This document shows positions 23,829 through 56,137 of a stretch of DNA of 64,000 nt, one piece after another. The notes below the pieces were generated by a model. The model did no database searches, was not told the origin of the DNA, and saw only the letters and a list, made by a program, of their open reading frames with translations. Position 1 is the stretch's first letter; each line of letters opens with the position of its first letter. This stretch comes from a virus. Taxonomy: Duplodnaviria; Caudoviricetes. The position numbers and the translations under genes were made by a program. The stretch spans positions 32,001-96,000 of the IMG/VR virus record IMGVR_UViG_3300022917_000008; one strand, 5' to 3'.

Positions 23829-23910
23829 TGTATGTTGTTTTTTGTTTGGCTTAATAAAGGAGGTCTTACATAGACATGCAAGGCCTGTAATTTATACCCT
23901 TAAACTAAAA

Positions 23911-24315
23911 GTGGAGGTGAGGGGAGTTGAACCCCTGTCCAACTTCAGTATCAATGTGTAGGAGTTTATATGCTTATCTGTGTTTGTCTTCTACAGTAGA
24001 ATAGTCAATTCACTTATCGCGTAGCACTGGGCAGAATTGACAATCACCACACTACTTTAGGTAGTGACTCTTTTGCTTTAGCTTATTAGGCAGCTATAGC
24101 TACACCTGTGTAAAGGCTTCTTACAGCCCCTTTGCTTCTGCTGTCACCAGCTTTGGCTACACTTGCTTTCAGCATAAATGCTGATTTACCTACTTTATTA
24201 GCAGATATTGTTCCGTCTCATTTGTTAGGTACATTACTGTACTTTAGGCCCTCATGACGCTTGGGCCTGCATAACTACCTATCAATACACAAAGCTGTCT
24301 AAACCTGGCACCCCC
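23911..24315 (-). ncRNA. ssrA: tmRNA
   Basis: 5' GGGGGTGCCAGGTTTAGAC and 3' GACAGGGGTTCAACTCCCCTCACCTCCAC give a G3-U70 Ala acceptor; internal frame ends ...VAIAA-TAA-TAA. Confidence 0.9.
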
Positions 24316-41700: not shown

Positions 41701-43009
41701 GGCTAACCACATCTCATTCCACACCTTCAATTGCTCCATGTGTGTACTATTGGCTGGTAATGACTTGTACTTCATATGATTGAGGTTTAATTGGTTAAGT
41801 GGTTGTACTGTTGGGGCTCATGCCTCTGGCATTTCGCCTGTTAGTCAGGTATCTGTTTCAAATGGCCTGTTCCTTGTGGATACTCATCAGCCAGCTCACT
41901 GAGTGATGTACCTAATAGTCTTATTAATTGACTATCTGAACCATTTATCACCTCTGTTATGTTGGACACAATGGCCTCAGCTAGTGTAGTATTAAATCCT
42001 TTTGATACTAGTATTCTGATTAGGTCAATATCTGCTTGTGTGGCCATAGAACTGAGTATTTAGTTATGTGATCAATTAGTATGAGGAATATGATGAAGTA
42101 CGGATGACTTGTAGATGTGATGTGGTGTTGATGCAGATCAAATAAACACTCATAATCAATGAGTTATACATCAGATGACTGTGTTTCACGTGGAACATAG
42201 CACAATAATCATAAGAGCTTGGTATATTTTCTCTCTGAGTTGTGAGATAAGAGAAAAATTACACCAAGAAATAGGGTCAATGACCTATTCTGTGATGTAA
42301 TTAACTAACATTCAGTGATACACTGAGAATACGAGACCAGAATTGGCCTTAGTTGTTAGACTGCTAAGGCAAACAATGCAGTGCCTTGAGGCATTAGCCT
42401 GATCATGTTGGCTGTCTTACTGTCAACCCCTTCGAATTCCAGGCTTGACATGTTCAGGAACTCACCACTCTTGGAAGGTGTGAGAACTGCCTTGGCAATG
42501 ACTGGCTTTCCAACAGGAATGTGAGTTGGAATGTTAGTGATTGCGCTCTCCAAAGGGAAGAATGTACCAAGGTCAGTGACTACAATCTTAGTCTTCCTGC
42601 CATCAGTGGTGCTCTTCCAGCCTCCAATGGATAATACCTGAATCTCAACAGTCTCAGACTTGGAATTCTTGCTTGCTTCGAGGTTCTTAGCAATGAGTTG
42701 CTCTACAAGGCTAAGTGGTTTTGCTGCTGGTGTGTTGTTCTGTTCCATGATAAATGAAATTTAGATGTAAATAAAGTGATTCCAAACACCACATGGGATT
42801 TGATCTCACAGTATAGGGGGTACCCCCAACTCCAGATTCTGCATGGGGTTGGTGATGGGGAAGGTACTTACATCTCTACGTACTATAAACTTGGTACCAT
42901 ACAGGTACTTACACTCGTGTATACCAATTAGAACAAGGGTGGGGGTATCTTATATACAACCAAACATAGGGGGTTATTTATTTGGAAGTACCAACTAGGG
43001 GGTGTATAT

Positions 43010-44077
43010 TTGTGTATAAACAAATCAACAAGTATGAACAACCCAAATGACACATTAGAGTCTGCAGCTATTGACCAGATAAAAGGGGCAAACCAAAAGG
43101 CCTTAGCAGGTAAGGTAGTAGACAGTGAACAGCCAGTAACTCCACAGAAGCCTATGTCAATAGAGCAGTACACACAGGCACTAAAGAAGGAGCATGAGGT
43201 AGCCAGGCTTAGGGCAGGCATAGCAAAGTTCATGTTTGAAGAGAACATGGCTATGGTACAACTCAATCAGCTAAGGGCTGGACAACACATGGTGCAGCAA
43301 GCACAGATGCCTGATAATCAACCAACTGAGGAAATCCCACAAACTGAAGACAATGGAGATCAAGGATAATCAATACAAGGAAGCACCATCAGGTCCTCCT
43401 GTGTTTCTAGCCCCAGCTGATGCTCCTGACAGGGATGCATTAGAGGCTTATAGGCATGGGTTAATGGAGAGGGTATGTAACCTTGATCCTGAGATTGGAC
43501 TGACTATTAGGAAGGACCTAATAGAGTTTGATGAGCAGCAGACAGCAGTATGGAGCTTGGATAGGATTCAGGATCAGCCTACTGATTGTTTGAGGGATTT
43601 GATAGTGAGGGTAGAGAACACAGAAGACATTCTTAAGGAAGACCCAAGACTACTGTAATGGAGCATTTACATGAACCTGAGATAGACCCTCTGGATATAG
43701 ATAGGCCTGGATACTATACACCCAGGATAGAAGAATTATTCTTCAGTTGTGAAGTAGATGTGTATGAAGGAGACAAGTGGATGTCCTATATCATAGATGA
43801 GGAGTTTGATCTGAACAACATATCAAGCTTTAGTCTAAGGATGAAATACTTACAGGCTAAGGATGTGATGGAACTAGGGTTTGCAAGAGTAATGCCTAAC
43901 ACTCCTATGTATCAAAGAGGGTCTTACACTATTACTACATACAGGCTACTTGATCCAACTTATAGCAGAGTGAAGATCAGTCAGAATGGTGTGACAGTGT
44001 TTGAGGGTCATGTGAAGAACAAGTCAGAGTTAAGAAGGATTCTGATACTTAATGAAATAAATTTTGCTGATAACTAA
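43010..44077 (+). other. Three hypothetical genes opening the plus-strand block (43010-43369, 43353-43658, 43658-44077)
   Basis: Overlapping ORFs downstream of TATATTTG near 43005. Confidence 0.7.
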
Positions 44078-44093
44078 GGAAGGAGTATATTTG
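44063..44093 (+). promoter_or_regulatory. Bacteroidota-type promoter for leader 1
   Basis: TTTG (44063) N19 TATATTTG (44086); ATG 3 nt later, so probably leaderless. Similar elements at 44806-44836, 50897-50928, 52742-52773 and 53850-53881. Confidence 0.75.
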
Positions 44094-44096
44094 GGT

Positions 44097-44192
44097 ATGC
44101 AACAACATGCAATAGATATGGCCAATAGAGAGATCAGGGTGAAGAAAAGCTCTGAGGGTATGCTATTTGCTAGACTAGATTACACAAGTTAA
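44097..44192 (+). CDS. Leader peptide 1 (MQQHAIDMANREIRVKKSSEGMLFARLDYTS), putative attenuator
   Basis: Translated by hand; codons 5-17 encode only amino acids of the downstream tRNA block; carries antiterminator 44149-44160. Confidence 0.8.
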   Translation: MQQHAIDMANREIRVKKSSEGMLFARLDYTS

Positions 44193-44215
44193 CAGGTTCC
44201 TAAGCAATAAGACTA

Positions 44216-44255
44216 CCCCCAGAGCAGCCAAAAGCTACCTGGGGGTTTTTGTTTT
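44216..44255 (+). terminator. Intrinsic terminator of attenuator 1
   Basis: CCCCCAG...CTGGGGG then TTTTTGTTTT, immediately before tRNA-Lys. Confidence 0.85.
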
Positions 44256-44257
44256 AT

Positions 44258-44329
44258 CCCCTTGTAGCAAACAGGTGTAGGCAAGAGTCTTTTAAACTCT
44301 GGGGTTTGGTTCAATTCCAAACAGGGGGA
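44258..44329 (+). tRNA. tRNA-Lys (TTT)
   Basis: AGAGT-CTTTTAA-ACTCT; terminal stem CCCCTTG/CAGGGGG. Confidence 0.85.
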
Positions 44330-44332
44330 CAA

Positions 44333-44405
44333 GCTGTTATAACTCAACAGGTAGAGTAATTGATTCTTAATCAATGAGTTCTAGGTTCGAGCCCTAGTAG
44401 CAGCA
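44333..44405 (+). tRNA. tRNA-Lys (CTT)
   Basis: ATTGA-TTCTTAA-TCAAT; GCTGTTA/TAGCAGC. Confidence 0.9.
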
Positions 44406-44406
44406 C

Positions 44407-44580
44407 ATGATAACAATACACACAGGAGCAGGTGGTATGGAGCTATTCCAAGAAATGATGGATAGGGAACTTGGATATGAAAGAGTATATCTTAGGAAGG
44501 TGCCAAGAATACTAAAGTCTAAGTTCAAAAAGAGTCCCTACACAGGGAAGTACTATAAAAGGATAAAGATGCCCCTTTAG
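44407..44580 (+). CDS. Small hypothetical protein (MITIHTGAGGMELFQEMM...)
   Basis: 57-aa ORF whose TAG stop lies inside tRNA-Val. Confidence 0.55.
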   Translation: MITIHTGAGGMELFQEMMDRELGYERVYLRKVPRILKSKFKKSPYTGKYYKRIKMPL

Positions 44581-44642
44581 CTCATTGGTAGAGCTTGTCC
44601 CTTACATGGATAGAGTAGGGAGTTCGATTCTCTCAGGGGGTA
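44571..44642 (+). tRNA. tRNA-Val (TAC)
   Basis: TGTCC-CTTACAT-GGATA; GCCCCTT/AGGGGGT. Confidence 0.85.
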
Positions 44643-44647
44643 CTAAT

Positions 44648-44719
44648 GCACCTGTAGCTCAATGGTAGAGCTGCAAACTTCTAATTTGCAGGCTGGAAGT
44701 TCGACCCTTCCCAGGTGTT
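44648..44719 (+). tRNA. tRNA-Arg (TCT)
   Basis: GCAAA-CTTCTAA-TTTGC; GCACCTG/CAGGTGT. Confidence 0.9.
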
Positions 44720-44725
44720 CTATAA

Positions 44726-44798
44726 GGCCAGTTAGCTCAGTGATAGTAGCAAGAAGCTGTTAACTTCTAGGTCCTAGGTTTGATCCCTAGACTGGCCT
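44726..44798 (+). tRNA. tRNA-Asn (GTT)
   Basis: AGAAG-CTGTTAA-CTTCT; GGCCAGT/ACTGGCC. Confidence 0.9.
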
Positions 44799-44840
44799 CA
44801 GATATTTTGTTCTTTGGAATAAACTTCATACATTTGTATT

Positions 44841-45230
44841 GTGACACAAAGAGAACAAACAATAGCAACCAAGTTCCTATATTTGATAGGAGTAACTAAG
44901 GGGCAGATATTTGCCAAGTGTAAGAACTGGCAGTCAGCTAGAACAACCATAAGGAGACATGCTGTGAAGATATATGAGACCTCAGGGAAGCCAAAAGCAT
45001 GTAACTCTTGTGGATATGATAAGCATTATGAAATATGTCACATAAGGGCTGTGTCTGACTTTCCAGATGAAGCCTTAGTTGAAGAGATAAATAGTATAGA
45101 CAACCTGATGGCACTATGTCCAAACTGTCATTGGGAGTTTGACAATTTAGATTGTGGGGTGGATGTAACGGTAACACAAGACTCTCATAAGGTCTTAATT
45201 GACAGTTCGATTCTGTCCCCCGCAACGTAA
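44841..45230 (+). CDS. HNH endonuclease, 3' end overlapping a tRNA
   Basis: CNSCG...EICHI...NSIDNLMALCPNCHWEFD. Confidence 0.85.
   Translation: MTQREQTIATKFLYLIGVTKGQIFAKCKNWQSARTTIRRHAVKIYETSGKPKACNSCGYDKHYEICHIRAVSDFPDEALVEEINSIDNLMALCPNCHWEFDNLDCGVDVTVTQDSHKVLIDSSILSPAT
45153..45225 (+). tRNA. tRNA with CAT anticodon (Met-like)
   Basis: AGACT-CTCATAA-GGTCT; TGTGGGG/CCCCGCA. Confidence 0.8.
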
Positions 45231-45327
45231 CACAACAAAACTTGGAGCACAAGTATCTACTCATAAAAGGAGTGCTTAGGGCATAGGCTGGTGACTTCAG
45301 TAATAACCCTTCCAGTGAGAGTAGATT

Positions 45328-45399
45328 AGTACTATCGTCTAGTGGCTAGGACATTGCACTTTCACTGCAATAAAGGGGGATCGAAACCCCCTAGTACTA
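45328..45399 (+). tRNA. tRNA-Glu (TTC)
   Basis: TTGCA-CTTTCAC-TGCAA; AGTACTA/TAGTACT. Confidence 0.9.
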
Positions 45400-45406
45400 C
45401 AACCAT

Positions 45407-45483
45407 AGCCTCAGGGGCTGCTAGAAGTGGCCACTCCCCTGTCACGGGAGAATATCAGGAGGGTTTGAATCCCTTTGGGGCTG
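45407..45483 (+). tRNA. tRNA-Asp (GTC)
   Basis: CTCCC-CTGTCAC-GGGAG; AGCCTCA/TGGGGCT. Confidence 0.85.
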
Positions 45484-45484
45484 C

Positions 45485-45616
45485 ATGAAAGAGACATTCA
45501 ACAGGATATGGAATGATCCAGTGGGATCAGATATCATAGCTGGACTGATAGTGTTAGTAATAGCATTTGTACTATCCAGAGTATTCAACATCAAGATTCC
45601 TCATTTTGACCCTTAG
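45485..45616 (+). CDS. Small single-TM protein
   Basis: MKETFNRIWNDPVGSDIIAGLIVLVIAFVLSRVF...; TAG stop inside the next tRNA. Confidence 0.55.
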   Translation: MKETFNRIWNDPVGSDIIAGLIVLVIAFVLSRVFNIKIPHFDP

Positions 45617-45679
45617 CTCAATAGGTAGAGCAGGATACTCATAATATCAAGGTAGTGGGTTCAAATCCCTCAGGGTCAA
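45607..45679 (+). tRNA. tRNA with CAT anticodon (Met, or Ile2 if lysidine-modified)
   Basis: GATA-CTCATAA-TATC; TGACCCT/AGGGTCA. Confidence 0.8.
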
Positions 45680-45691
45680 CAAACTAACATT

Positions 45692-46471
45692 ATGTTCTAC
45701 GTATTGCAAGAGAATGTTTTCAAGGAGTCCCATCATGAACTAATAATGAACTGGATGGAAAAGGCTGGAATAGAGCATGAAGTAATCAAGTTCAGACCTT
45801 TCACAGACACATTAGAAGTAGAGACTAAGAGGAAGGACATATGGTTATGGGGATCAGTTAGTGCATCCAGGATAGCTGAGAAGTACGGATGGTCTCCTGG
45901 TAGTATGTACAATGACAATCATGACCTTGAGGTCTACTCCAAGTACTATGGTGAGAACATGCTAAACCATGATGGTGTGGTAATGAGAGTTACTGATCCA
46001 CTCCCAGATGGTTTAGTCTCATTCTTTGCTAGACCAACTAAGGATACTAAGGCATTCACAGGACAGGTCTTTGATGCTAAGGAATGGAATGAATGGGTAG
46101 ATGATATGACTAGGGCAGGCTTAGTTAGAAGCTTCAGTAAGGATACTAAGGTACTACTAGCGCCTCTCAAGTTGATACAGCAAGAGGTAAGGTGCTGGGT
46201 GATAGGAGGTAAAGTAGTGTCTGCAAGTAGATATAAGATGCATGACAGGATACAATACCAGAACTATGATGATGAGACTTTCTACACTGACTTTGCCCAG
46301 AAGATGGCAGACATTTATTGTCCAGCAGAAGCCTTTGTGATAGATGTATGTTTGGCTGAGGGAGAACTTAAAGTGGTAGAAATCAACTGCATAAACTGTT
46401 CTGGTTTCTATCATATGAACGTAGATAAAGTAATGAGTGCTCTTGAGACTCATTTTGGCAATGTCACATAG
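45692..46471 (+). CDS. ATP-grasp domain protein (DUF4343-like)
   Basis: FARPTKDTKAFTGQV, EVRCWVIGGKVV, FVIDV, VVEINCINCSGFY. Confidence 0.8.
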   Translation: MFYVLQENVFKESHHELIMNWMEKAGIEHEVIKFRPFTDTLEVETKRKDIWLWGSVSASRIAEKYGWSPGSMYNDNHDLEVYSKYYGENMLNHDGVVMRVTDPLPDGLVSFFARPTKDTKAFTGQVFDAKEWNEWVDDMTRAGLVRSFSKDTKVLLAPLKLIQQEVRCWVIGGKVVSASRYKMHDRIQYQNYDDETFYTDFAQKMADIYCPAEAFVIDVCLAEGELKVVEINCINCSGFYHMNVDKVMSALETHFGNVT

Positions 46472-46533
46472 CTCAATGGTTGAGCACCAATCTGATAAGT
46501 TGGGGGATGTAGGTTCAAATCCTACTGTGACAA
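46462..46533 (+). tRNA. tRNA-Ile (GAT)
   Basis: CCAAT-CTGATAA-GTTGG; TGTCACA/TGTGACA. Confidence 0.9.
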
Positions 46534-46536
46534 CTA

Positions 46537-47074
46537 TGAAACAAGAAATACTAGATGCAGGATGGAAGTACTATCAGAGCCCATATCTAGCTGAGAAGTA
46601 CAGAGAGGGGGTATATGAAAAGGGCAACTACTGGATGAAGATAAATGAAGATAGCAGAGACATAACAGTGATTGCACAAGACCCAGTAAAGCTACTAGAT
46701 GAGGGATGGGTATACCCAGAGAATTTTAAACTCTGTGTTCCTTATAAAGGGCCCAAAACACTAGAAGGCTTGGATAAACTACTAGATTTATGATGCTCCA
46801 ATTGAACCCTATACTACCAGTTTTCGTTCCTAGGTTCAACATAGAGGGATTTGCCTTTCTTGTAACTAGGGAATCACAAGAGCATTATACAATCTTCACT
46901 GTGGCCTTAGACAATGGTGAGATATGGGACCTAAGTAACAGGGAGGTAAGGTTTTGTGTTAATCACACTATGGACAGATCATTTATTAACAAGGGGGACA
47001 CAATATTCAAAGATGCTTTTAGACCACATAACAGGGCTGTTCCTGATGATAAAACACAGGAGAAGGGTAGTTAG
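46537..47074 (+). other. Two small hypothetical genes (46537-46793, 46790-47074)
   Basis: MKQEILDAGW... and MMLQLNPILPVF... joined by an ATGA overlap. Confidence 0.6.
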
Positions 47075-47176
47075 GTTCAAGGTACCCAGGGCTAAGGTAA
47101 TGCAGGTATACAGGTTCTCTAGGCCCAATGCCAAGGCTTTGTACTTAGGGCTGGGCAGGTTCATCTTTATCAACTA

Positions 47177-47246
47177 GGGCTAGATGCCAATGGCAGGTCA
47201 ACTCCCTTGCAAGGAGATTGTTTGGGTTCGACTCCCACTATGTCCA
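47177..47246 (+). tRNA. tRNA-Ala (TGC), irregular acceptor stem
   Basis: CTCC-CTTGCAA-GGAG; G3-U70 present; TGGG-TTCGACT-CCCA. Confidence 0.75.
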
Positions 47247-47302
47247 CTAATTTAATCCCAAGTATGGAGTTAATTTTGTATCTTTATTTGTAAAGATATA
47301 CT

Positions 47303-48673
47303 ATGGCTACTGCAACAATAAATTGGGTACCCACCAATGGAAGTGGGTATGAAATATGGTATGGTAAGCTAACTATGGTTGGCACTACTTTCTTACCTCC
47401 TTCTACAGGCTGGATACAAGCTCCTGGTTCACCTTTTGATTCTACTCTGGGTACAGCTACTATCAATGGACTGGATGACAACACTCAGTACAGGATAGTA
47501 ACTAGGGCTGACTGTACATCTGCTGACAGTCCATGGATTGATAAGAGTGTGGACAAGATAGTCTGCCCTACTTTCACTGTAGTAGCTAATCCAGTAGGTG
47601 GAACAGATGTGGGAGCTTCAATCACAGCAAACATTAGCCTGTCTAATATTGTTGAATTTGGATTGATAGTCTCCTCAGTTACTCTCACTGTCAAGAAGAC
47701 AAGTGATTCTTCAGTAGCAGCAACTAAGGTATTCTCTGCTCCATATACAGACACTACTCTCACTAACACATTCACATCTTTACTTACTAATACCAGTTAC
47801 ACAGTATATCTGACTTTGCATGATAGTGTGAATTCAGTGGATGTTACATGCACAAATCATGCTGTAACAACACTTGCATTCATACCACCTCCTACATGTA
47901 CAGCTCCAACATTCTCTATTAGCAATATCACACAATCTTCTGCCTTAGTTACAATAACATCAACTCTTCTAACTGGGGACACATATGATATTTCTATCAA
48001 TGGTGGATCATCCTATGTCTATACAGGACTAACTGGGGCAACATTCAGTCTTACAGGACTAACCCAGGGCACTAATTATGTAGTTGTGGTAAGGAGGAAC
48101 TGTGCAGCTGGTAATCAAGGCATTAGCACAAGTCAGACATTCACTACTGCAAGTAACATCATACCAGCAACTATACAAGCTAATAGGAGTAATGGACAGA
48201 TCAATACTGGTGGTGGACCAAGGTGGCAGTATTCAATGGTAATAACATTCCAACAACCTACACCATTCCCCATTACTATTTACTTTGGTCAGTCTGTGAT
48301 TGTAGGACAAGTAGGTGGAGGACAGTGTAGGTACAGTCAGGGATATGATATGTATACACCTCCAACTACAGGACCAATAGCTTGTTGTTTTGGTGGATGT
48401 ACATATCCAGCTCCAAACTCTAACAAGCCTTGGAGGATAGATGTACCTGCAGGTGTGGTCACATATACAGTACCATTTGACACTGCATTCAGAGATGGGG
48501 TCACTCATGCTGACTTGCAACAAGTGTGGTGTGTACAGGAGCCTGTGGGCACAGGTGCAGTGGATTACATTAGTGATTTGTGGATGAAGATTACTGCTCC
48601 TTCAGGATATTTCTGTAACTTCACTCCTGTACCTGGAGCACATACATCAGGGATAACAATACACAATCTATAA
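47303..48673 (+). CDS. Thr-rich protein with fibronectin type III-like repeats (possible virion decoration/adhesion)
   Basis: GLDDNTQY, SLLTNTSY and GLTQGTNY FN3 signatures. Confidence 0.75.
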   Translation: MATATINWVPTNGSGYEIWYGKLTMVGTTFLPPSTGWIQAPGSPFDSTLGTATINGLDDNTQYRIVTRADCTSADSPWIDKSVDKIVCPTFTVVANPVGGTDVGASITANISLSNIVEFGLIVSSVTLTVKKTSDSSVAATKVFSAPYTDTTLTNTFTSLLTNTSYTVYLTLHDSVNSVDVTCTNHAVTTLAFIPPPTCTAPTFSISNITQSSALVTITSTLLTGDTYDISINGGSSYVYTGLTGATFSLTGLTQGTNYVVVVRRNCAAGNQGISTSQTFTTASNIIPATIQANRSNGQINTGGGPRWQYSMVITFQQPTPFPITIYFGQSVIVGQVGGGQCRYSQGYDMYTPPTTGPIACCFGGCTYPAPNSNKPWRIDVPAGVVTYTVPFDTAFRDGVTHADLQQVWCVQEPVGTGAVDYISDLWMKITAPSGYFCNFTPVPGAHTSGITIHNL

Positions 48674-48674
48674 T

Positions 48675-49652
48675 ATGAGTTTGATTAAGGATTTCTGCAA
48701 ATGGTTCAATGGGGAAGAGGATGTTGACAATACCCTCTATGTGATTACAGTGGTATTCAATCCTTTCAATTTCAAGTCCAGGTACAAGTTGTACAGGGAG
48801 TTCAGGGAGTACATGTCTACACAGAAGAATGTGAGGCTTCTAACAGTAGAAGTAGCACTAGGGGATAGGCCATTTAGAGTAACTAGGGCCAATAACTCTT
48901 GGAATGTGCAACTAAGGACTGAGGAAGAGATGTGGCACAAGGAGGCAGCTATTAATAGAGGGTTCAAACATCTATTACACTTGGTACCTAATGCCAAGTA
49001 TGTTGGATGGTTTGATTCTGATGTTAGGTTTGCTAATCCAGACTGGGTTAAGGAGACTATTCATGCCCTACACAGGTACAAGATAGTCCAGCCCTTCTCA
49101 CAAGTTGTATACATGGATGCAAAGTATGAAGAGTTGTGGCATACACCAAGTGCACTGAAACACTACCATAACAAATTAGGATACTATCAATATCCCCAAG
49201 TACCTCCTGGGTATCTATGTGGAGGACATCCAGGGTTAGCTTGGGCTGCAAGAGTAGATACTTTCAGGAAACTAGGAGGACTAATGGACTTCTGTATAGC
49301 AGGATCAGCAGACACACACATGCTGAATGCACTACTGGGAGATGTCAACATATTCTACAAACCTGGTATGACACAGGTGTTCAGGACTGAGCTTAAGAAG
49401 TGGCAGGACAAAGCAGATGAGCATGTTAAACAAAATATAGGCTACGTCAATGGAATCTGCTATCATTACTGGCATGGGAAGAGTGAGAAAAGGGGATATG
49501 AGAAGAGGTGGGACATAATGAACTTTCATCAATTTGACCCTTCTACTGACATTGTGAGGGGTCATAATGGACTATGGAAGTGGGCTGGAAACAAGCCCCA
49601 GTTAGTCTATGATCTAAGGAAATCAATGTCAGAAAGGAATGAAGATGAGTAA
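48675..49652 (+). CDS. Glycosyltransferase-like protein (GT-A)
   Basis: WHKEAAIN.G, WFDSDV (DxD), GHPGLAWA, HYWHG. Confidence 0.7.
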   Translation: MSLIKDFCKWFNGEEDVDNTLYVITVVFNPFNFKSRYKLYREFREYMSTQKNVRLLTVEVALGDRPFRVTRANNSWNVQLRTEEEMWHKEAAINRGFKHLLHLVPNAKYVGWFDSDVRFANPDWVKETIHALHRYKIVQPFSQVVYMDAKYEELWHTPSALKHYHNKLGYYQYPQVPPGYLCGGHPGLAWAARVDTFRKLGGLMDFCIAGSADTHMLNALLGDVNIFYKPGMTQVFRTELKKWQDKADEHVKQNIGYVNGICYHYWHGKSEKRGYEKRWDIMNFHQFDPSTDIVRGHNGLWKWAGNKPQLVYDLRKSMSERNEDE

Positions 49653-50184
49653 TACACTGATAACACAGGACAGGTTAACAACTTTCTCCTTGCTAAGGCC
49701 CCTAGTTCCTAAAGAAGGATTAGTAGCTGAGGTAGGAGTATATAAGGGAGGATCACTTAAAGTACTAGCTAAACTGTTTGATGACACAGCAGTACTAGGA
49801 TTTGATACATTTGAGGGGTTACCTAAGGAGCAATGGATTGAGAGTGAGATACATGAGCCTGGTGACTTTCATGATACTACAATGAAGGATGTGCAGGAAT
49901 TCTTGCATGATTGTCCAAACGTGGTACTGATCAAGGGACTATTCCCAACATCAGCTAAGGGAATGGATGATTACAAGTTCAGGCTAGTACATTTGGATAC
50001 AGACTTTTATCTGGGTACAAAGTTATCACTAGAGTGGTTTTGGCCAAGGATGGAAAGTGGAGGTATTATAGTGTTTGATGACTATAAGTGGCCCAATTGT
50101 CCAGGTGTAGAACAAGTACTGAAGGAGTTTGGAGAACCTGTGCACCAAGCAGCAGATTATCAGGCATACATAAAGAAACCATGA
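49639..50184 (+). CDS. TylF/MycF-like SAM-dependent O-methyltransferase
   Basis: AEVGVYKGGS, GFDTFEGLP, KGLF, VHLDTD.Y, GGIIVFDDY. Confidence 0.85.
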   Translation: MKMSNTLITQDRLTTFSLLRPLVPKEGLVAEVGVYKGGSLKVLAKLFDDTAVLGFDTFEGLPKEQWIESEIHEPGDFHDTTMKDVQEFLHDCPNVVLIKGLFPTSAKGMDDYKFRLVHLDTDFYLGTKLSLEWFWPRMESGGIIVFDDYKWPNCPGVEQVLKEFGEPVHQAADYQAYIKKP

Positions 50185-50912
50185 CATACATACAGAACAA
50201 GGACGGACTTATAGGAGACTTCCTGGGATCAGTACCTGCAATGCAGGAGCTAGGTAGAAGGGACAAGCTAGTGGTACAGATTCATCCAGAGGCATTGAAG
50301 TTAGTACCTCTTATATACAACCCAGATGGGATTGTATTTACTGAGATAGCAACTGGGCAAGTGTCACATACAATCTACTCAGCTACTGCATTCCAGATTG
50401 CAACAGCAAAGAATCTGTACATGTCACAAGCATTCTTTGAGCAGGTGGGATTGGAGATTCCCCTAGTTGCTCCTAAAGCTGATTTAAGGCTCATAGAGGT
50501 CCATACTCCAACTTATGACTACATCATATCACCTTTTGCTAGAAGCCTACCAAGCAGCCAGAAATTGCCTAAGAGTGAATGGAAGCAGTTGGTGGATAGC
50601 ATGCCTAACAAGAAGTTCTGTGTAATTGGTACAACAGTGCATGATGATCCTGAGTTCATAGTAGGACCTAATGTGGAGACTAGATTTGATATGGACTTCA
50701 ACTATGTAGGTAGCCTGCTAAGGAATGCAACTAAGGGACTCATCAGTGTTGTGACAGGCACTTCTCATTTAGCATTTCACCTAGGAGTGAAGAACTGGAT
50801 ACTTAATAATCAGGACTTTGCATGGGGTACTAATCCAGATGGAGTATCAATCAGGGATCATATTCCAGCTCTATTTGGAGAAAAGATTAGAGAATATTTG
50901 GAAAATAGCTAG
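50181..50912 (+). CDS. GT9-like (heptosyltransferase-like) glycosyltransferase
   Basis: IGDFLGSVPAMQEL, ISPFA, ISVVTGTSHLA; start moved to ATG 50181 (ATGA overlap). Confidence 0.7.
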   Translation: MTYIQNKDGLIGDFLGSVPAMQELGRRDKLVVQIHPEALKLVPLIYNPDGIVFTEIATGQVSHTIYSATAFQIATAKNLYMSQAFFEQVGLEIPLVAPKADLRLIEVHTPTYDYIISPFARSLPSSQKLPKSEWKQLVDSMPNKKFCVIGTTVHDDPEFIVGPNVETRFDMDFNYVGSLLRNATKGLISVVTGTSHLAFHLGVKNWILNNQDFAWGTNPDGVSIRDHIPALFGEKIREYLENS

Positions 50913-50936
50913 GACTGCACTATATTTGTATTACAT

Positions 50937-51115
50937 GCGGGGGATACTTAGAGAGCCCTGTTCTCTTATAACCCTTTAATACAGCCATAAAAGCTGTCCC
51001 CCGTTCCATGGAGAGGTGCTTCTAAGCTTTAGGTTGGTGTGATCCCAACTCTCTCTGCAAATGGGTAGAAATAGCATAGAGCTGTCAGTTGGGTGTAAGC
51101 CCCACCTACCCACCA
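50937..51115 (+). ncRNA. Three tandem truncated tRNA-like units
   Basis: 50937-51008 GCGGGGG/CCCCCGT-TCCA; 51010-51059 GGAGAG/CTCTCT with a GGTTGG/CCAACT hairpin; 51062-51115 TGGGTAG/CTACCCA-CCA. Confidence 0.6.
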
Positions 51116-51116
51116 T

Positions 51117-51189
51117 GCCTTCCTAGCTCAATTGATAGAGCGTCCATCTCTAAAATGGAAAGATGTGGGTTTGAGTCCCACGGATCGCA
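51117..51189 (+). tRNA. Amber suppressor-type tRNA (anticodon CTA)
   Basis: TCCAT-CTCTAAA-ATGGA; normal D arm and T stem; acceptor GCCTTCC/GGATCGC has two mismatches. Confidence 0.8.
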
Positions 51190-51204
51190 CTTAAACTAAA
51201 CACA

Positions 51205-51567
51205 ATGGCTTAGATTACATCAACATCCAGATTGATAACTATAGTAAGGAGAGACCTTAGTCATGGTTATCAGACAGCACAGACAGGTCATGCAATAGCA
51301 GAATGGGCTTATAACAATCCCAGGACCTTTAGAAGGTGGAGAAAAGAAAGTGGGTACTTAATATGTCTTTCAGTAAGAAACCTAGCAGAGCTAGAGGCAT
51401 TCAACAGAAAGTTATATGACAACAAGATAAAGTACACAGCATTTTATGAACCTGACATTGGAGAGTTTACAGCAATAGCAATAACTCCTTCAACTAAGGC
51501 AGACCAGTTAACTAAGCATCTACAGCTAGCCAATGTAAAGGCTGGCACTAAGGACAAACACAAATGA
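51205..51567 (+). CDS. Pth2-like peptidyl-tRNA hydrolase with in-frame TAG at codon 3
   Basis: IVRRDLSHG...AQTGHA and FYEPDIGEFTAIAI motifs; ATG-GCT-TAG at 51205 is in frame with the ORF called from TTG 51232. Confidence 0.75.
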
Positions 51568-51635
51568 AGCAATTATCCTCATATTATCTCCTAAGTTCCC
51601 TGTTGAATAGACAGGCTGAGATAGTATTGAGTTAA
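51564..51635 (+). CDS. Leader peptide 2 (MKQLSSYYLLSSLLNRQAEIVLS), putative attenuator
   Basis: Codons 4-14 are all Leu, Ser or Tyr; ATGA overlap with the Pth2 stop. Confidence 0.85.
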   Translation: MKQLSSYYLLSSLLNRQAEIVLS

Positions 51636-51660
51636 GTCATTCTTCGGAGACCCTTATACT

Positions 51661-51696
51661 AGCCCTCAGCCTAAAAACTGGGGGCTTTTTGTTTTT
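51661..51696 (+). terminator. Intrinsic terminator of attenuator 2
   Basis: AGCCCTCAG-CCTAAAAA-CTGGGGGCT then TTTTGTTTTT. Confidence 0.85.
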
Positions 51697-51698
51697 AT

Positions 51699-51774
51699 GG
51701 CAGTGTGGGCAAAATGGTAAAGTCGCTTCACTTAGGATGAAGAGGTTCTGAGAGTTCGAGTCTCTCCACTGTCA
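51699..51774 (+). tRNA. tRNA-Leu (TAG), short variable region
   Basis: CTTCA-CTTAGGA-TGAAG; GGCAGTG/CACTGTC. Confidence 0.85.
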
Positions 51775-51777
51775 CAT

Positions 51778-51857
51778 ACCTCCATGGTGAAATTGGTAGA
51801 CGCGACAGACTTAAAATCTGTTCCTTCGGGGTGCCAGTTCAAATCTGGCTGGGGGTA
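51778..51857 (+). tRNA. tRNA-Leu (TAA)
   Basis: ACAGA-CTTAAAA-TCTGT; variable arm CCTTCGGG. Confidence 0.9.
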
Positions 51858-51859
51858 CT

Positions 51860-52258
51860 ATGGATAATAAAACCTACTATAGCTCCATAGCGGAGCTAAA
51901 AGTAATGGCTGATCTAACAGCTAAGCACTATCATATATTCAATCAAGTATCTGGTAAGGCACCATTTGACTTGGTTGCATACAGGGATGGAGAGCTAAGG
52001 AGAGTCAGTGTCAAGAGTTGCAACAAAGACCCTAGGAAGGACGGGGGATTTGTGATAGAAGTTGGCAGGGTAAGAGCCAATAAAACAGAGAATAAGATAT
52101 ACAAGTTTGATCAGTCTGAATGTGATCTGCTGGCCATCTACATAGTCAAAGAAGATAGAATAGTCTATGTGGAGTCAACAGTAGCGCATGATAAAAGGCA
52201 GATCATCATACAAGGAAGGTCCCAGTTGACAGAGGTACATGATCTTGAAAATCACTAG
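51860..52258 (+). CDS. PD-(D/E)XK homing-endonuclease-like protein
   Basis: AELKV...PFDLV......RVSVKS and CDLLAIY; 3' end overlaps tRNA-Ser. Confidence 0.75.
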   Translation: MDNKTYYSSIAELKVMADLTAKHYHIFNQVSGKAPFDLVAYRDGELRRVSVKSCNKDPRKDGGFVIEVGRVRANKTENKIYKFDQSECDLLAIYIVKEDRIVYVESTVAHDKRQIIIQGRSQLTEVHDLENH

Positions 52259-52299
52259 GTCCCTAAAAAGACGTGGGGGTTGAACTCCCCCACCTTCCT
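52214..52299 (+). tRNA. tRNA-Ser (TGA), degenerate D arm
   Basis: TGAT-CTTGAAA-ATCA; long variable arm; GGAAGGT/ACCTTCC. Confidence 0.7.
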
Positions 52300-52307
52300 C
52301 AAACTAA

Positions 52308-52392
52308 GGAGAGTTGGCTGAGAGGCTTAAAGCACCACATTGCTAACGTGGGGGCTGTAATAGGTCCACTAGTTCGAATCTAGTACTCTCCT
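52308..52392 (+). tRNA. tRNA-Ser (GCT)
   Basis: CCAC-ATTGCTAAC-GTGG; GGAGAGT/ACTCTCC. Confidence 0.9.
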
Positions 52393-52398
52393 CTTAAT

Positions 52399-52482
52399 GC
52401 CTACCATGGTAGATTGGATACTACCTGTGGACTGTAAATCCACTGCCCTTGGGCTTATTCAGTTCGATTCTGAAGGGAGGCA
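52399..52482 (+). tRNA. tRNA-Tyr (GTA)
   Basis: GTGGA-CTGTAAA-TCCAC; variable arm GCCC-TT-GGGC. Confidence 0.85.
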
Positions 52483-52504
52483 CATTTTGTTGTATATTTG
52501 TATA

Positions 52505-52765
52505 ATGGAATACAACATCACACCTCAGGCCCTAGTTGATAGGGGATTCAAGTACCATGCACCAGGCATAAGTGGAGCAGACATGTGGCAGGGAATGCCA
52601 TGGTGGATTCATAAGGAGAAGGATATAGGTCTATGCCTTAGAGGGACTACTTCTACAGCAAAGCCTAGAGGACTAAGGTTAGCTGGACATTTCAATACAG
52701 AGGTGAGAACAATAAAGCAGTTAGAAGTTTTGATGGAAATATTTGGTTTGAATCCAAATAGTTAG
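52505..52765 (+). CDS. Hypothetical protein
   Basis: ATG 52505 (MEYNITPQ) follows TATATTTG; the track start lies inside tRNA-Tyr. Confidence 0.65.
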   Translation: MEYNITPQALVDRGFKYHAPGISGADMWQGMPWWIHKEKDIGLCLRGTTSTAKPRGLRLAGHFNTEVRTIKQLEVLMEIFGLNPNS

Positions 52766-52776
52766 TATATTTGATT

Positions 52777-52848
52777 ATGAAACAGACTTGGCAACATACC
52801 TTTACGACACAAACTCCACTAAAAGGAGAAGGGTATCTGTTGTCATAA
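52777..52848 (+). CDS. Leader peptide 3 (MKQTWQHTFTTQTPLKGEGYLLS), putative attenuator
   Basis: Codons 3-14 are all Gln, Thr, Trp, His, Phe or Pro; ATG 3 nt after TATATTTG. Confidence 0.85.
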   Translation: MKQTWQHTFTTQTPLKGEGYLLS

Positions 52849-52883
52849 CATTCCAAGAAAGATTGTAATAATGAAACACTGAT

Positions 52884-52913
52884 ACCCTCCATTCCTGGAG
52901 GGTTTTTTATTTT
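52884..52913 (+). terminator. Intrinsic terminator of attenuator 3
   Basis: ACCCTCCA-TTCC-TGGAGGGT then TTTTTATTTT. Confidence 0.85.
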
Positions 52914-52984
52914 GGGTGGTTGACCAATGGTAGGTCCCTACATTTGGGATGTAGAATTTGCAGGTTCGAGTCCTGTTCACCCAA
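52913..52984 (+). tRNA. tRNA-Pro (TGG)
   Basis: CTACA-TTTGGGA-TGTAG; TGGGTGG/TCACCCA. Confidence 0.9.
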
Positions 52985-52988
52985 CTAT

Positions 52989-53061
52989 GGTGCACAAGCT
53001 AATCTGGTGAAAGCACTAGACTGAAAATCTAGGGAGCTTGGATCAAAACCAAGGTGTACCG
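52989..53061 (+). tRNA. tRNA-Phe (GAA)
   Basis: CTAGA-CTGAAAA-TCTAG; GGTGCAC/GTGTACC. Confidence 0.9.
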
Positions 53062-53062
53062 C

Positions 53063-53494
53063 ATGAAACAATCAAATAGAAAGGATGCTAGAAGGGTCAT
53101 AGACTGTGAAAACTGTGGTAACCCAACAAAGAATGATAGATTCTGTAGTCTATCTTGCTCAGCAGAACATGTATCAAAGGAGCAGTATAGAAAGTTCTTG
53201 AGCAGCCCTGAGGACTTCCAGGGTGAGGAGTACTCTCCTAAGTCCTTTAAGAAGTTTATACTGAAGGAACAGGATTGCAAGTGTAGCATCTGTAGTATAG
53301 ACAATATATGGAATGGTAAGGAACTGGTGTTTGTACTAGATCACATAGATGGAAATCCAGGCAACAATACTAGGGACAACCTTAGGCTAGTATGTCCCAA
53401 TTGTGATAGCCAGTTGGACACATTTAAAAGTGGAAATAAGGGAAGTGGTAGGTACTACAGAACACAAAGAAGATTAGAGGGCAAATCCTCATAA
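53063..53494 (+). CDS. HNH endonuclease
   Basis: CENCG, FCSLSC, LDHIDGNPGNNTRDNLRLVCPNCDSQ. Confidence 0.9.
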   Translation: MKQSNRKDARRVIDCENCGNPTKNDRFCSLSCSAEHVSKEQYRKFLSSPEDFQGEEYSPKSFKKFILKEQDCKCSICSIDNIWNGKELVFVLDHIDGNPGNNTRDNLRLVCPNCDSQLDTFKSGNKGSGRYYRTQRRLEGKSS

Positions 53495-53567
53495 GGCCGG
53501 TTAGTTTATATGACTAAAATACGTCTCTTGTAAAGATGAGTACTGAGTTTGATGCTCAGACTGGCCT
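53495..53567 (+). tRNA. tRNA-Thr (TGT)
   Basis: CGTCT-CTTGTAA-AGATG; GGCCGGT/ACTGGCC. Confidence 0.85.
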
Positions 53568-53573
53568 CTTAAT

Positions 53574-53644
53574 AGCCCTTTAGCACATTGGTAGTGCGTG
53601 GAGCTTTGGACTCCATGAAGTTAGTTCGATCCTAGCAGGGGCTT
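53574..53644 (+). tRNA. tRNA-Gln (TTG)
   Basis: TGGAG-CTTTGGA-CTCCA; AGCCCTT/AGGGGCT. Confidence 0.85.
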
Positions 53645-53651
53645 CTTATAT

Positions 53652-53726
53652 GGTGCTTGTAGCATAAAGGTAATGCACTGCTCTGTGAAAGCAGTGAAGA
53701 GGGATCAATACCCTCCTTGTACCCCA
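53652..53726 (+). tRNA. tRNA-His (GTG)
   Basis: CTGCT-CTGTGAA-AGCAG; G-1/C73 and encoded CCA. Confidence 0.85.
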
Positions 53727-53729
53727 AAC

Positions 53730-53798
53730 ACGTGCTAGGCTATGGTAGCCACCCAGTCTCCAAAACTGAAGGAAGTAGTTCGATTCTACTAGTGCGTG
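53730..53798 (+). tRNA. tRNA-Trp (CCA)
   Basis: CAGT-CTCCAAA-ACTG; ACGTGCT/AGTGCGT. Confidence 0.85.
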
Positions 53799-53883
53799 CA
53801 ATAGAATAGTTTGATAAGCAAACCTATAAAGTTTGCATGTCAAACTATTTTTGTTTATATGAACTAAGACCCATATATTTGTA

Positions 53884-54246
53884 TTGAAGACCAACAATAT
53901 GAGTGTAGACTTAATCAAGGACAAGATAACAGTAAGTGATAAGACTGAGGCACTCAGGCTGCACCTACTTATTAAGTCCTTCCAGACAGGTCTAAACCTC
54001 TCAGAGTCAGACATTAACAGTCTGGTTGAGCTTAGCATAGTAGGGTATAACCCAGAGTTCTTCAAGGCTTGTGTAGACAAGGGCTATTACAAGAGTGAGC
54101 AGACTGTAAGGAATGCCATAGCCAAGATGACTAACATGGGGATACTGTACTACAGGAAGAGAGGGGAAAGGAAGATCAATGAGGACTTCCTACCTAAAAC
54201 AAGTTCAGACAAGGTAATGTTTCAATACTTAGTGGGTAACATATGA
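53884..54246 (+). CDS. Possible winged-helix DNA-binding protein
   Basis: SEQTVRNAIAKMTNMGIL helix-wing pattern. Confidence 0.55.
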   Translation: MKTNNMSVDLIKDKITVSDKTEALRLHLLIKSFQTGLNLSESDINSLVELSIVGYNPEFFKACVDKGYYKSEQTVRNAIAKMTNMGILYYRKRGERKINEDFLPKTSSDKVMFQYLVGNI

Positions 54247-54581
54247 TAGTAAGGGCATCTGAAATATATACTGTAACAGCACTAAGGCATGGATTGGACC
54301 AAGAACTTGTTTCCTCAGTTGGTGAGACAGTGTTCAAGTCCTTGATGGAAAAGATGGTAGTACCTCATGACCTAGCTTATGAGTTGGATCATGTGGGGAC
54401 ATTTGCTATTAGACACAAGAAGTTCTTGGGTAAGCATGCAACCCTTTTGAGTAATAACCCTGACCATCCCTTTGTGTCAACATGGAGGCATGTTATAGAC
54501 ATGGTACAGGACTTCAGAAACACTAAGGCACAATTTCAATCTAGGAGGGCAGAATATGACAGAGCCAAAAAACAAGGCTAA
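54243..54581 (+). CDS. HU/IHF-like DNA-binding protein
   Basis: Helix-helix start followed by YELDHVGTFAIR. Confidence 0.55.
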   Translation: MIVRASEIYTVTALRHGLDQELVSSVGETVFKSLMEKMVVPHDLAYELDHVGTFAIRHKKFLGKHATLLSNNPDHPFVSTWRHVIDMVQDFRNTKAQFQSRRAEYDRAKKQG

Positions 54582-54873
54582 GATCAGCCTTAAGAATATA
54601 GGTAGGTTCTTGCAGGGATACTCCAGGATGTTCTCAGAGACCTTTGGCTTGCTTGAAAAGCACAAACAGGAGCAAGTTATATGGAGATCAGAACAGGCCA
54701 AGGAATGCCTTAAAAATGGCTCCTGCTTGTATTGTGGATGTGACACCCCAGCTAAATTTTATGGAGATGAAGCATGTGAGGACCCTCAAAGGCAATGTTA
54801 CCCTAGTATGATGGATGTACCAACTTGGGAACAGTATAAGGCAGAACATCAAATAACCATTAAAGTAGACTAA
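54556..54873 (+). CDS. Cys-rich hypothetical protein
   Basis: C....SCLYCGC.......C......CYP.MM...WEQYK. Confidence 0.7.
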   Translation: MTEPKNKAKISLKNIGRFLQGYSRMFSETFGLLEKHKQEQVIWRSEQAKECLKNGSCLYCGCDTPAKFYGDEACEDPQRQCYPSMMDVPTWEQYKAEHQITIKVD

Positions 54874-55181
54874 TGGGACAAGAAGTAACAATAAGCCCTA
54901 GTAGGATGGACTTGGGCAAGATAGATAACAAACCCAGAAAGTTCTGGTTTGAAGTCAGGAATAACCACCATGCAACTCTTGACTTAGCAGCTTGGGCCTC
55001 TTGTGGCTGTACTACACCAATAGTAGTCCCTAGTAGGGTTGAACCTGGGCAGACAGCACAACTGAGGGTAGAATTTGATCCCACTGGTAAAAGTGGCCTC
55101 CAGGAGAAGGGAGTGGGAGTAACTTATGTTATAGAGGGCCATCAGAAGAACACAGGAGCAACCTTTGTTGCAAACATCTAA
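54873..55181 (+). CDS. DUF1573-like Ig-fold protein
   Basis: ASCGCTTP....VEPGQT..LRVEFD..GKSG. Confidence 0.8.
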   Translation: MGQEVTISPSRMDLGKIDNKPRKFWFEVRNNHHATLDLAAWASCGCTTPIVVPSRVEPGQTAQLRVEFDPTGKSGLQEKGVGVTYVIEGHQKNTGATFVANI

Positions 55182-55192
55182 AACAAAATACT

Positions 55193-55492
55193 ATGAGTTT
55201 CCACAATCACACACATGAAGAGGGTCATCTATGTGATGACTGCAAGGCAGAATTGAAAGAGGACATTCACCTTATGATCACTATCCTACACTCTCCAGCA
55301 GGGGAATCTACTAGGGACTTGGCTGATAGCCTACTATACAGCTTCCTTATGGAGCTATATGGGGTATGTGACTGTGAGGACCCTGATGAGGATGATGATG
55401 AACAGTCAGATAATGATAGCCCTGTACAAGGTCCTATAATTGGGAACTTGAGGGAGTTCCTCACAGCTATGGGTACACAGCACCACACCTAA
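55193..55492 (+). CDS. His/Cys/acid-rich hypothetical protein
   Basis: HNHTHEEGHLCDDC...CDCEDPDEDDDE. Confidence 0.6.
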   Translation: MSFHNHTHEEGHLCDDCKAELKEDIHLMITILHSPAGESTRDLADSLLYSFLMELYGVCDCEDPDEDDDEQSDNDSPVQGPIIGNLREFLTAMGTQHHT

Positions 55493-55522
55493 TTATCATG
55501 TTGGGGGCCAGTCTAGTCAGGA

Positions 55523-55984
55523 ATGGAAAAGTATTGTCCTAAATGCAAGCAGAAGAAAGACACATCCTTCTTCAGACCTAACAAATCTAGGAAGGATGGT
55601 CTTCAACCTTGCTGCATAGATTGTGATAAGGAATATCAAAGGCAATGGTACCAGAGCAACAAGGAAAAGGTAAAAGCTAAGTCCTTAGTAAGCAATAAGG
55701 TAAATAGAGAAAGAGTACAAGAGATTCTACTAAGGGAACTAGAAGGTAAGAAATGTGAACACTGTGGGGAAGGTGATATACTAGTACTAGAGTTTGACCA
55801 CCTAAGAGACAAGCAGTTCACCATAGGCAATACACAGTGGGAGAGCGAAGACAAAATAATAGAGGAGGTAGGAAAGTGCCAAGTACTATGTGCCAACTGC
55901 CATAGAAGGAAAACTCATGAAGATATGAACACATACAAATGGAGGTATAGCCAAGGGGTAAGGCAGGAGTCTGCAAAACTCTGA
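55523..55984 (+). CDS. HNH endonuclease, 3' end overlapping tRNA-Cys
   Basis: CPKC, CIDC, CEHCG..LEFDHL..KCQVLCANCHRRKT. Confidence 0.85.
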   Translation: MEKYCPKCKQKKDTSFFRPNKSRKDGLQPCCIDCDKEYQRQWYQSNKEKVKAKSLVSNKVNRERVQEILLRELEGKKCEHCGEGDILVLEFDHLRDKQFTIGNTQWESEDKIIEEVGKCQVLCANCHRRKTHEDMNTYKWRYSQGVRQESAKL

Positions 55985-56014
55985 GCGAAGGTTCAATTCC
56001 TTCTACCTCTTCCA
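55941..56014 (+). tRNA. tRNA-Cys (GCA)
   Basis: GGAGT-CTGCAAA-ACTCT; U73 and encoded CCA. Confidence 0.9.
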
Positions 56015-56047
56015 GAAATCCAACAAACCTTAAATAAACCAACACTA

Positions 56048-56120
56048 GCATCAGTAGTATAAAGGCTGATTATACTGCACTTCCAATGCAGGGATGAGGT
56101 TTCGATTACCTCCTGGTGCT
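56048..56120 (+). tRNA. tRNA-Gly (TCC)
   Basis: CTGCA-CTTCCAA-TGCAG; GCATCAG/CTGGTGC; U73. Confidence 0.9.
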
Positions 56121-56137
56121 CAAAAAGAAACCAACTA

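Follow-up and report, generated by a model that had tools for sequence, protein, structure and literature searches.

Analysis of a 64,000-nucleotide window of phage DNA (bases 32001-96000 of the 155,657-bp virus record IMGVR_UViG_3300022917_000008, rated complete by CheckV) led us to a leader at 44097-44255 that is probably a ribosome-mediated (leader-peptide) transcription attenuator gating a phage tRNA operon. Coordinates given without a contig name are those of the window, and the element, its promoter and the tRNA genes that it precedes all lie on the plus strand. This reading is drawn from the sequence and is favored because the element has the anatomy of an attenuator: a promoter of its own, a short open reading frame (ORF), mutually exclusive terminator and antiterminator structures, and a tRNA gene beginning 2 nt past the U-tract, all of which are kept with compensatory changes in three divergent relatives. 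Read in this way, the element puts a known mechanism to a new use and in a new layout.

Codon block, terminator and antiterminator of leader 1

The leader ORF (44097-44192) consists of 31 codons and a TAA stop codon (ATG at 44097, TAA at 44190-44192), and counterparts of it are present in the relatives that we designate L002, L003 and L028. Codons 5-17 (44109-44147) constitute a block that encodes only Ala, Ile, Asp, Met, Asn, Arg, Glu, Val and Lys, using 13 different codons, and the nine amino acids (9/9) have a tRNA or tRNA-like gene in the region 44258-47246. Using the amino-acid frequencies of the phage's own long ORFs as background, the probability of a run of at least 13 residues from this tRNA set in a 31-residue peptide was P = 1e-3; the probability that 13 draws cover all eight types called by ARAGORN (P = 0.05) is a further factor.

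Downstream of the ORF, we found a terminator composed of a bulged hairpin of 11 bp (44215-44246; −18.2 kcal/mol for the stem alone) and the U-tract TTTTTGTTTT (44247-44255). The 53-nt stretch 44205-44257 folds at −21.4 kcal/mol, which corresponds to z = −4.7 relative to shuffles. As the preliminary description of this DNA had pointed out, the Lys tRNAs come first after this structure, tRNA-Lys(UUU) starting at 44258 and tRNA-Lys(CUU) at 44333. Given that the first of them starts 2 nt after the U-tract, there is no room for a separate promoter in front of it, and the transcripts that reach the first tRNA must read through the terminator.

The same description had proposed that the 12-mer GCTCTGAGGGTA (44149-44160) could act as an antiterminator by pairing with TACCCCCAGAGC (44214-44225). 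We observed that these sequences do pair at 11 of 12 positions, with a single A-C mismatch, and that the second one shares nucleotides with the 5′ arm of the terminator. Of the duplexes that the leader can form with this arm, the best consists of 44148-44165 (segment 2, the core of which is 44149-44160) and 44209-44226 (segment 3); its energy, −20.8 kcal/mol, is stronger than that of the terminator, and it had a P of ~0.003 against 1000 dinucleotide shuffles of the leader (shuffle mean −11.5 kcal/mol). This pairing appears in the fold obtained without the 3′ arm of the terminator. In the minimum-energy fold of the whole leader, a possible segment 1 (44134-44140) forms a weak 7-bp hairpin with 44149-44155, the loop of which holds the two Lys codons.

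Conservation of codon content in relatives and in other units

Relatives were sought with two anchors, the R2K ATP-grasp gene that lies within the cluster (45692-46471) and the gene preceding the leader. In L002, which is syntenic and has an ATP-grasp protein 69% identical, an ORF of 26 codons (6963-7043) is located between a TATATTTG box and a terminator preceding tRNA-Lys; this ORF lists the same nine amino acids in another order, and the sequence of the terminator differs. L028, whose upstream protein is 53% identical, has a leader of 23 codons starting at 1384 with the same set minus Glu. In L003, a different phage, the leader has 31 codons (5182-5277) and includes three additional Gly codons, and its cluster contains a tRNA-Gly(GCC); the Val codons of this leader are matched by a tRNA-Val(UAC) that was found only by Rfam. 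The place of the leader, between the upstream gene or promoter and tRNA-Lys, is kept in L002, L003 and L028. Since the sequence of the peptide is not kept but its composition is, and this composition tracks the tRNA content, selection seems to act on the codon content and not on the protein. No leader unit was found near the ATP-grasp gene of L004, L031, L032 and L033, and L027 turned out to be identical to the window.

The antiterminator pairing was also found in the relatives. In L003, GGCCTGGGATTC pairs with GAATCCCCAGGCC (P = 0.002), and in L028, CTGAGGGCT pairs with AGCCCTCAG (P = 0.007); in both cases, the two strands have changed together. The antiterminator of L002 was borderline (P = 0.05). 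Over 18 units, Fisher's method gave a combined P of 4e-13; the evidence is at most as strong as this value implies, because some of these units are homologous and not independent; 10 units were individually below 0.05. In all 18 units, the partner strand is located after the codon block and before the stop codon.

The window contains two additional leaders of this kind. Leader 2 (51564-51635) includes 11 consecutive Leu/Ser/Tyr codons and is located ahead of two tRNA-Leu genes, tRNA-Ser and tRNA-Tyr, while leader 3 (52777-52848) includes 12 consecutive Gln/Thr/Trp/His/Phe/Pro codons ahead of the Pro, Thr, Gln, His, Trp and Phe tRNAs. Each of them matched its own tRNA set with P = 1.6e-7, and no match signal was observed when the leaders were compared with the wrong tRNA sets. 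The match of leader 3 to its cluster is complete thanks to a tRNA-Phe(GAA) at 52989-53061 (+) that was missed by ARAGORN and detected with Rfam (51.5 bits). Together, the three leaders list 18 of the 20 amino acids, over three operons of a single phage. A fourth leader was not found before tRNA-Cys/tRNA-Gly (55941-56121), where a 153-codon ORF runs into tRNA-Cys.

Regarding the choice of codons, it had been suggested that leader 1 samples isoacceptor codons. The synonymous pairs are present in the block, AAG/AAA at codons 16-17, AGA/AGG at codons 11 and 14, ATA/ATC at codons 6 and 13, and GCA/GCC at codons 5 and 9; as a selected feature, however, the sampling is weak. The occurrence of 13 different codons in 13 positions had by itself a P of 0.08, the leader of L002 uses only AAA for Lys despite the presence of both Lys tRNAs, and AGA/AGG and ATA correspond to the normal codon usage of the phage. 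When the three leaders of the window were considered together, 32 different codons were counted versus 27.2 expected (P = 0.003), including ACG, which represents 1% of the Thr codons of the phage. Leaders may therefore have a general tendency to spread over synonymous codons, which leader 1 alone does not demonstrate.

A mechanical scan for a terminator at most 32 nt from a tRNA, accompanied by a short ORF ending at most 70 nt upstream of the terminator, recovered 17 units in 9 contigs, whose tRNA sets were taken automatically. The blocks of these units include Cys/Val/Leu, Phe/Asp/Glu/Ala, Pro/Gln/Tyr/Thr/Gly, Glu/Asp/Asn/Ile and His/Gln/Pro/Leu. The median P of the 17 units was 2.6e-4 against their own tRNA set, with many values between 1e-6 and 1e-9, whereas against the disjoint sets of other units the median P was 0.78 and the minimum 0.022. 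Units with a checklist leader occur in unrelated contigs, at 1933-2100 and 12676-12870 of L030 and in L008, L013, L016, L018 and L023. In many units of unrelated contigs, a TATATTTG box lies 19-38 nt upstream of the ATG of the leader.

These comparisons bear on two other explanations. In the first one, the ORF would simply be a small protein gene of the phage with an ordinary terminator at the end of its operon, expression of the tRNAs would come from leaky read-through or from other promoters, and the agreement between codons and tRNAs would be a coincidence or the result of a shared codon bias. Small ORFs and terminators are numerous in phage genomes, the AGA/AGG and ATA codons are, as mentioned, usual for this phage, and there is an internal promoter at 44806-44836. 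However, what is conserved in four divergent phages is the amino-acid set and not the sequence of the peptide, this set shifts with the tRNA set (as seen for Gly in L003), and the statistics for own and other sets are strongly different; moreover, tRNA-Lys is only 2 nt away from the U-tract, and the tail of the ORF contains a significant and covarying partner of the terminator arm. We consider this explanation very unlikely. The second one, to which we give just as little credence, is that the leader acts exclusively as RNA, for instance in RNA processing, in pausing or as a riboswitch-like sensor binding uncharged tRNA in the style of a T-box, the ORF being incidental. Alternative structures are indeed present and significant, and T-box leaders are able to sense tRNAs through RNA-RNA contact. 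Against this, conservation is observed at the level of amino acids while the nucleotides and the order of the residues change, every relative retains the ATG and the stop codon, no Rfam family, including T-box, reached the gathering score for the leader in a search across the whole window, and the presence of nine amino acids in a single leader is not explained by a single specifier-type contact.

The predicted switch and its relation to known attenuators

The effect of a ribosome on the leader of the window was modeled by masking, codon by codon, a footprint from −15 to +12 relative to the A site, and by obtaining the probability of the terminator stem from partition functions (at equilibrium). 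In the absence of a ribosome, or with the A site at codons 1-4, this probability was ~0.95-0.96; it was 0.82-0.89 with the A site at codons 5-9, fell to 0.01-0.04 at codons 10-14 (AAT AGA GAG ATC AGG), and was 0.96 from codon 15 onward, both Lys codons included. Five responsive codons were not obtained with any of the dinucleotide shuffles of the leader (0/128), 127 of which gave none. The model also predicted a response for leader 3 (codons 4-12), for leader 2 (mainly codons 5-7) and for L028 (codons 2-12).

We propose that a ribosome slowed inside the block would leave the strand in the tail free, which in the simple footprint model occurs best with the A site at codons 10-14 (Asn, Arg, Glu, Ile, Arg). 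Once available, this strand would pair with the emerging arm of the terminator, and the RNA polymerase would continue into the tRNA genes. In contrast, if the ribosome reaches the tail or the stop codon, or if it never loads, the terminator would form and transcription would end at ~44255. The outcome would be a negative feedback in which the shortage of any of the listed charged tRNAs raises the synthesis of the whole tRNA set.

In addition to the homology among units mentioned above, several observations weigh against this proposal. L002, L003 and several other units show no switch in the equilibrium model; this may fit a kinetic process, in which the antiterminator forms before the 3′ arm of the terminator, but it is still a gap. 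For leader 1, the model does not predict a switch at Val-15 or at both Lys codons, which are 1-9 nt from the antiterminator strand, even though the Lys tRNAs lead the operon. Given that the Lys codons end 1 nt before segment 2, a stall on them should cover half of this segment. The stop codon is 25 nt past segment 2, so that a terminating ribosome should be in the loop between segments 2 and 3 without covering segment 2. Finally, two promoters could influence the control exerted by the leader. A second full-consensus promoter (44806-44836; TTTG-N19-TACATTTG) is located directly after tRNA-Asn, inside the cluster of leader 1, and this promoter-like site may express the distal tRNAs (Met, Glu, Asp, Ile2, Ile and Ala), bypassing the attenuator; the upstream promoter at 42981-43012 also sends transcripts into the leader.

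The position of the Lys and Val codons beside segment 2, which does not fit the classical geometry, and the long tail past this segment, which differs from that of trpL, would be in line with an attenuator that has an opposite or different input. In such a case, read-through would need efficient translation, or the leader would report general ribosome stress, a signal to which some upstream ORFs respond (PMC12121999). We judge this possibility to be unlikely, albeit somewhat less so than the two explanations discussed above. With a ribosome at the stop codon (44190), more than 10 nt still separate its edge from the terminator (44215), which it cannot mask directly; the untranslated RNA folds into the terminator state; and according to the model, the antiterminator of leaders 1-3 and that of L028 are freed by stalls inside the block. 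An attenuator in which slow translation of the block favors read-through continues to be our preferred reading.

An attenuator of this type would resemble those of the operons for amino-acid biosynthesis (trpL, hisL, leuL, pheL and thrL), in which regulatory codons are likewise concentrated in a short translated ORF, and an intrinsic terminator has one strand in common with an antiterminator. The read-out would, as in those systems, be the position of the ribosome. The fact that several amino acids are listed recalls ilvL (Ile, Val and Leu; ilvGMEDA) and thrL (Thr and Ile). Leader-peptide attenuators have been noted in flavobacteria (PMC9723704). Unlike the biosynthetic attenuators, this leader belongs to a phage and would control tRNA genes instead of biosynthetic enzymes; each of its nine amino acids is listed once or twice, without a run of a single residue, and its mRNA is plausibly leaderless. 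In addition, unlike in trpL, the stop codon does not adjoin the antiterminator strand but lies 25 nt past it.

Also comparable are the pheST attenuator (pheM leader) and the T-box leaders of aminoacyl-tRNA synthetase genes, which make the expression of a tRNA-charging component dependent on the state of the cognate tRNA. By analogy, the phage unit would do the same, but pheM and the T-boxes control synthetase genes, whereas the phage unit would control tRNA genes. T-boxes, moreover, sense uncharged tRNA without translation, and there is no T-box match in the window. A full-text search of the literature, in which not all journals are covered, retrieved no paper on the control of tRNA genes by a leader peptide, either in phages or in cells.

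The tRNA genes of phages are usually regarded as passively expressed cargo, serving to correct codon bias or to make up for host tRNAs that have been degraded. If our proposal is true, this phage would gauge the speed of decoding codon by codon and would make tRNAs on demand, the supply of tRNA being subject to feedback by classical attenuation. The leaders also help to recognize real tRNA-like genes, having drawn attention to the tRNA-Phe missed by ARAGORN and to a tRNA-Ala of odd form; from them it can be seen which tRNA with anticodon CAU probably reads ATA, and they indicate a Bacteroidota host. For several amino acids, they would provide natural sensors of tRNA charging that are compact. 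A more tentative idea, which we rate as possible but doubtful, is that the leaders allow the phage to sense the loss of tRNAs caused by the host or by the infection (anticodon nucleases acting on tRNA-Lys and others, or host tRNA turnover), functioning as an inducible counter-defense that would provide replacement tRNAs on demand.

Promoter, host and tRNA genes

The leader is preceded by a promoter of the Bacteroidota sigma-A type (44063-44093), with the structure TTTG-N19-TATATTTG. It consists of a −33 box TTTG (44063-44066) and a −7 box TATATTTG (44086-44093), which corresponds to the consensus TAnnTTTG and is separated from the ATG by 3 nt, as had been noticed from the sequence. In Bacteroidota, the consensus is TTTG at −33 and TAnnTTTG at −7, 19-21 nt apart (PMC7366714, PMC9723704), and the promoter of leader 1 has both boxes with this spacing. 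Full-consensus sites (TTTG-N19-21-TAnnTTTG) were found six times in the window versus 0.74 expected, all of them on the plus strand between 42981 and 53881.

A map of transcription start sites in flavobacteria places the TAnnTTTG box at −12 to −5 (PMC9723704); therefore, the predicted +1 of leader 1 is 44098, or the purine 44097 if a shift of one base is allowed. The distance between the box and the ATG is 3 nt in leader 1, in leader 3 (−7 box at 52766-52773, ATG at 52777) and in L028, and 5 nt in L002, while the remaining promoters of the window are 13-17 nt before the start codon. In the lineages L008, L013 and L016, the −7 box is 19-38 nt upstream of the ATG of the leader, with predicted 5′ UTRs of ~15-35 nt, so a leaderless start is not general among such units. 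Leaderless transcripts represent 3.7-5.5% of the mRNAs in Bacteroidota (PMC7366714, PMC9723704). It is plausible that the mRNA of leader 1 is leaderless, as first suggested, starting at the AUG or within 1 nt of it. The sequence GGAAGGAG (44078-44085) was considered as a Shine-Dalgarno site that would argue against a leaderless start, and it was dropped because Shine-Dalgarno-like cores are depleted in this phage. A 14-codon ORF (50935-50979, +) was also noted 6 nt after the TATATTTG box of the promoter at 50897-50928, which is ahead of a suppressor tRNA; its codons match no tRNA, the suppressor included, and it is not conserved in L002.

Upstream of the phage genes, Shine-Dalgarno-like cores are rarer (5%) than in random windows (11%), and A is enriched at −11 to −14. 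The combination of Shine-Dalgarno depletion and A-rich upstream regions is the Bacteroidota pattern (PMC7366714). Both traits, together with the six promoter sites of Bacteroidota consensus, point to a Bacteroidota host. The record has a GC content of 42%, and its portal protein (59522-62308) is distantly crAss-like, with at most 33% identity to any GenBank phage. GenBank phages match the window only at tRNA genes, and no close relatives were found in IMG/VR with single-protein patterns, with the exact 22-mer of the leader or with a pattern of the terminator. The genes run leftward up to ~42750 and rightward from ~43010; the rightward arm begins with three small genes, followed by the tRNA region (44258-56121), which holds 22 tRNA genes, an amber-suppressor tRNA and several inserted ORFs. 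The presence of the suppressor tRNA(CUA) raised the possibility of stop-codon recoding, which was rejected given that with the standard code 11, which fits the phage, long ORFs cover 89% of the genome.

The cluster that follows leader 1 starts with the two Lys tRNAs (44258-44406) and continues with tRNA-Val(UAC), tRNA-Arg(UCU) and tRNA-Asn(GUU) (44571-44799), a tRNA with anticodon CAU (45153-45226), tRNA-Glu(UUC) and tRNA-Asp(GUC) (45328-45484), a second tRNA with anticodon CAU (45607-45680), tRNA-Ile(GAU) (46462-46534), and a gene similar to tRNA-Ala(UGC) (47177-47246). The latter has an unusual, shortened D arm and a weak Rfam score (29.8 bits), and it is conserved at 9520-9592 of L002 with five compensatory pairs and a G3-U70 pair.

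From the ATA codon of the leader, it had been suggested that one of the downstream tRNAs with this anticodon would be a lysidine-modified tRNA-Ile2. This suggestion holds, and the gene in question is probably that at 45607. There are three CAU tRNAs in the phage. The one at 35699 (−) can be identified as the initiator, because it has a C1xA72 mismatch and its anticodon stem contains three G-C pairs. The best matches of the tRNA at 45607 in E. coli are annotated as tRNA-Ile; it shows ~80% identity to the one adjoining mug, whose anticodon is CAT. Reading of its sequence revealed the pairs C4-G69 and C5-G68, and its positional counterpart in L002 is a tRNA-Ile(UAU), with anticodon TAT. The tRNA at 45153 is probably the elongator Met; it groups with the tRNAs at 7528 of L002 and 6802 of L003, has a U1-A72 pair and an anticodon stem without the three G-C pairs, and no match to it was found in E. 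coli. The ATA codon, which represents 45% of the Ile codons of the phage and is present in the four ORFs of the leader 1 type, would be served by the predicted tRNA-Ile2 at 45607. A gene for TilS (PF01171) was not found in the phage genome, so the formation of lysidine would need the TilS of the host.

Other features were observed among the tRNA genes and elsewhere in the window. ORFs for an HNH endonuclease (44841-45150) and a PD-(D/E)XK endonuclease (51860-52258), both on the plus strand, are located between tRNA genes. L002 has a tRNA-Ser(UGA) at the place of the PD-(D/E)XK ORF; TCC and TCA codons persist in leader 2 of the window, and they are read by no tRNA called in the phage genome. 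The amber-suppressor tRNA(CUA) is directly followed by the gene of Pth2, a peptidyl-tRNA hydrolase (51117-51232, +, in the window; ~13425-13545 in L002). The longest reading of Pth2 begins with ATG-GCT-TAG (TAG at 51211), in frame with an ORF started by TTG at 51232, and the arrangement ATG-NNN-TAG is kept at the same place of Pth2 in L002. Leader 2 overlaps the stop codon of Pth2 (ATGA). On the minus strand, matches to the tRNA model were obtained at 12002-12121 and 15688-15751 (42.7 and 53.8 bits), one of them being unusually long. The phage also encodes a tmRNA (23909-24315, −), with an Rfam score of 75.6 bits and a tag peptide that, according to ARAGORN, ends in LLIK.

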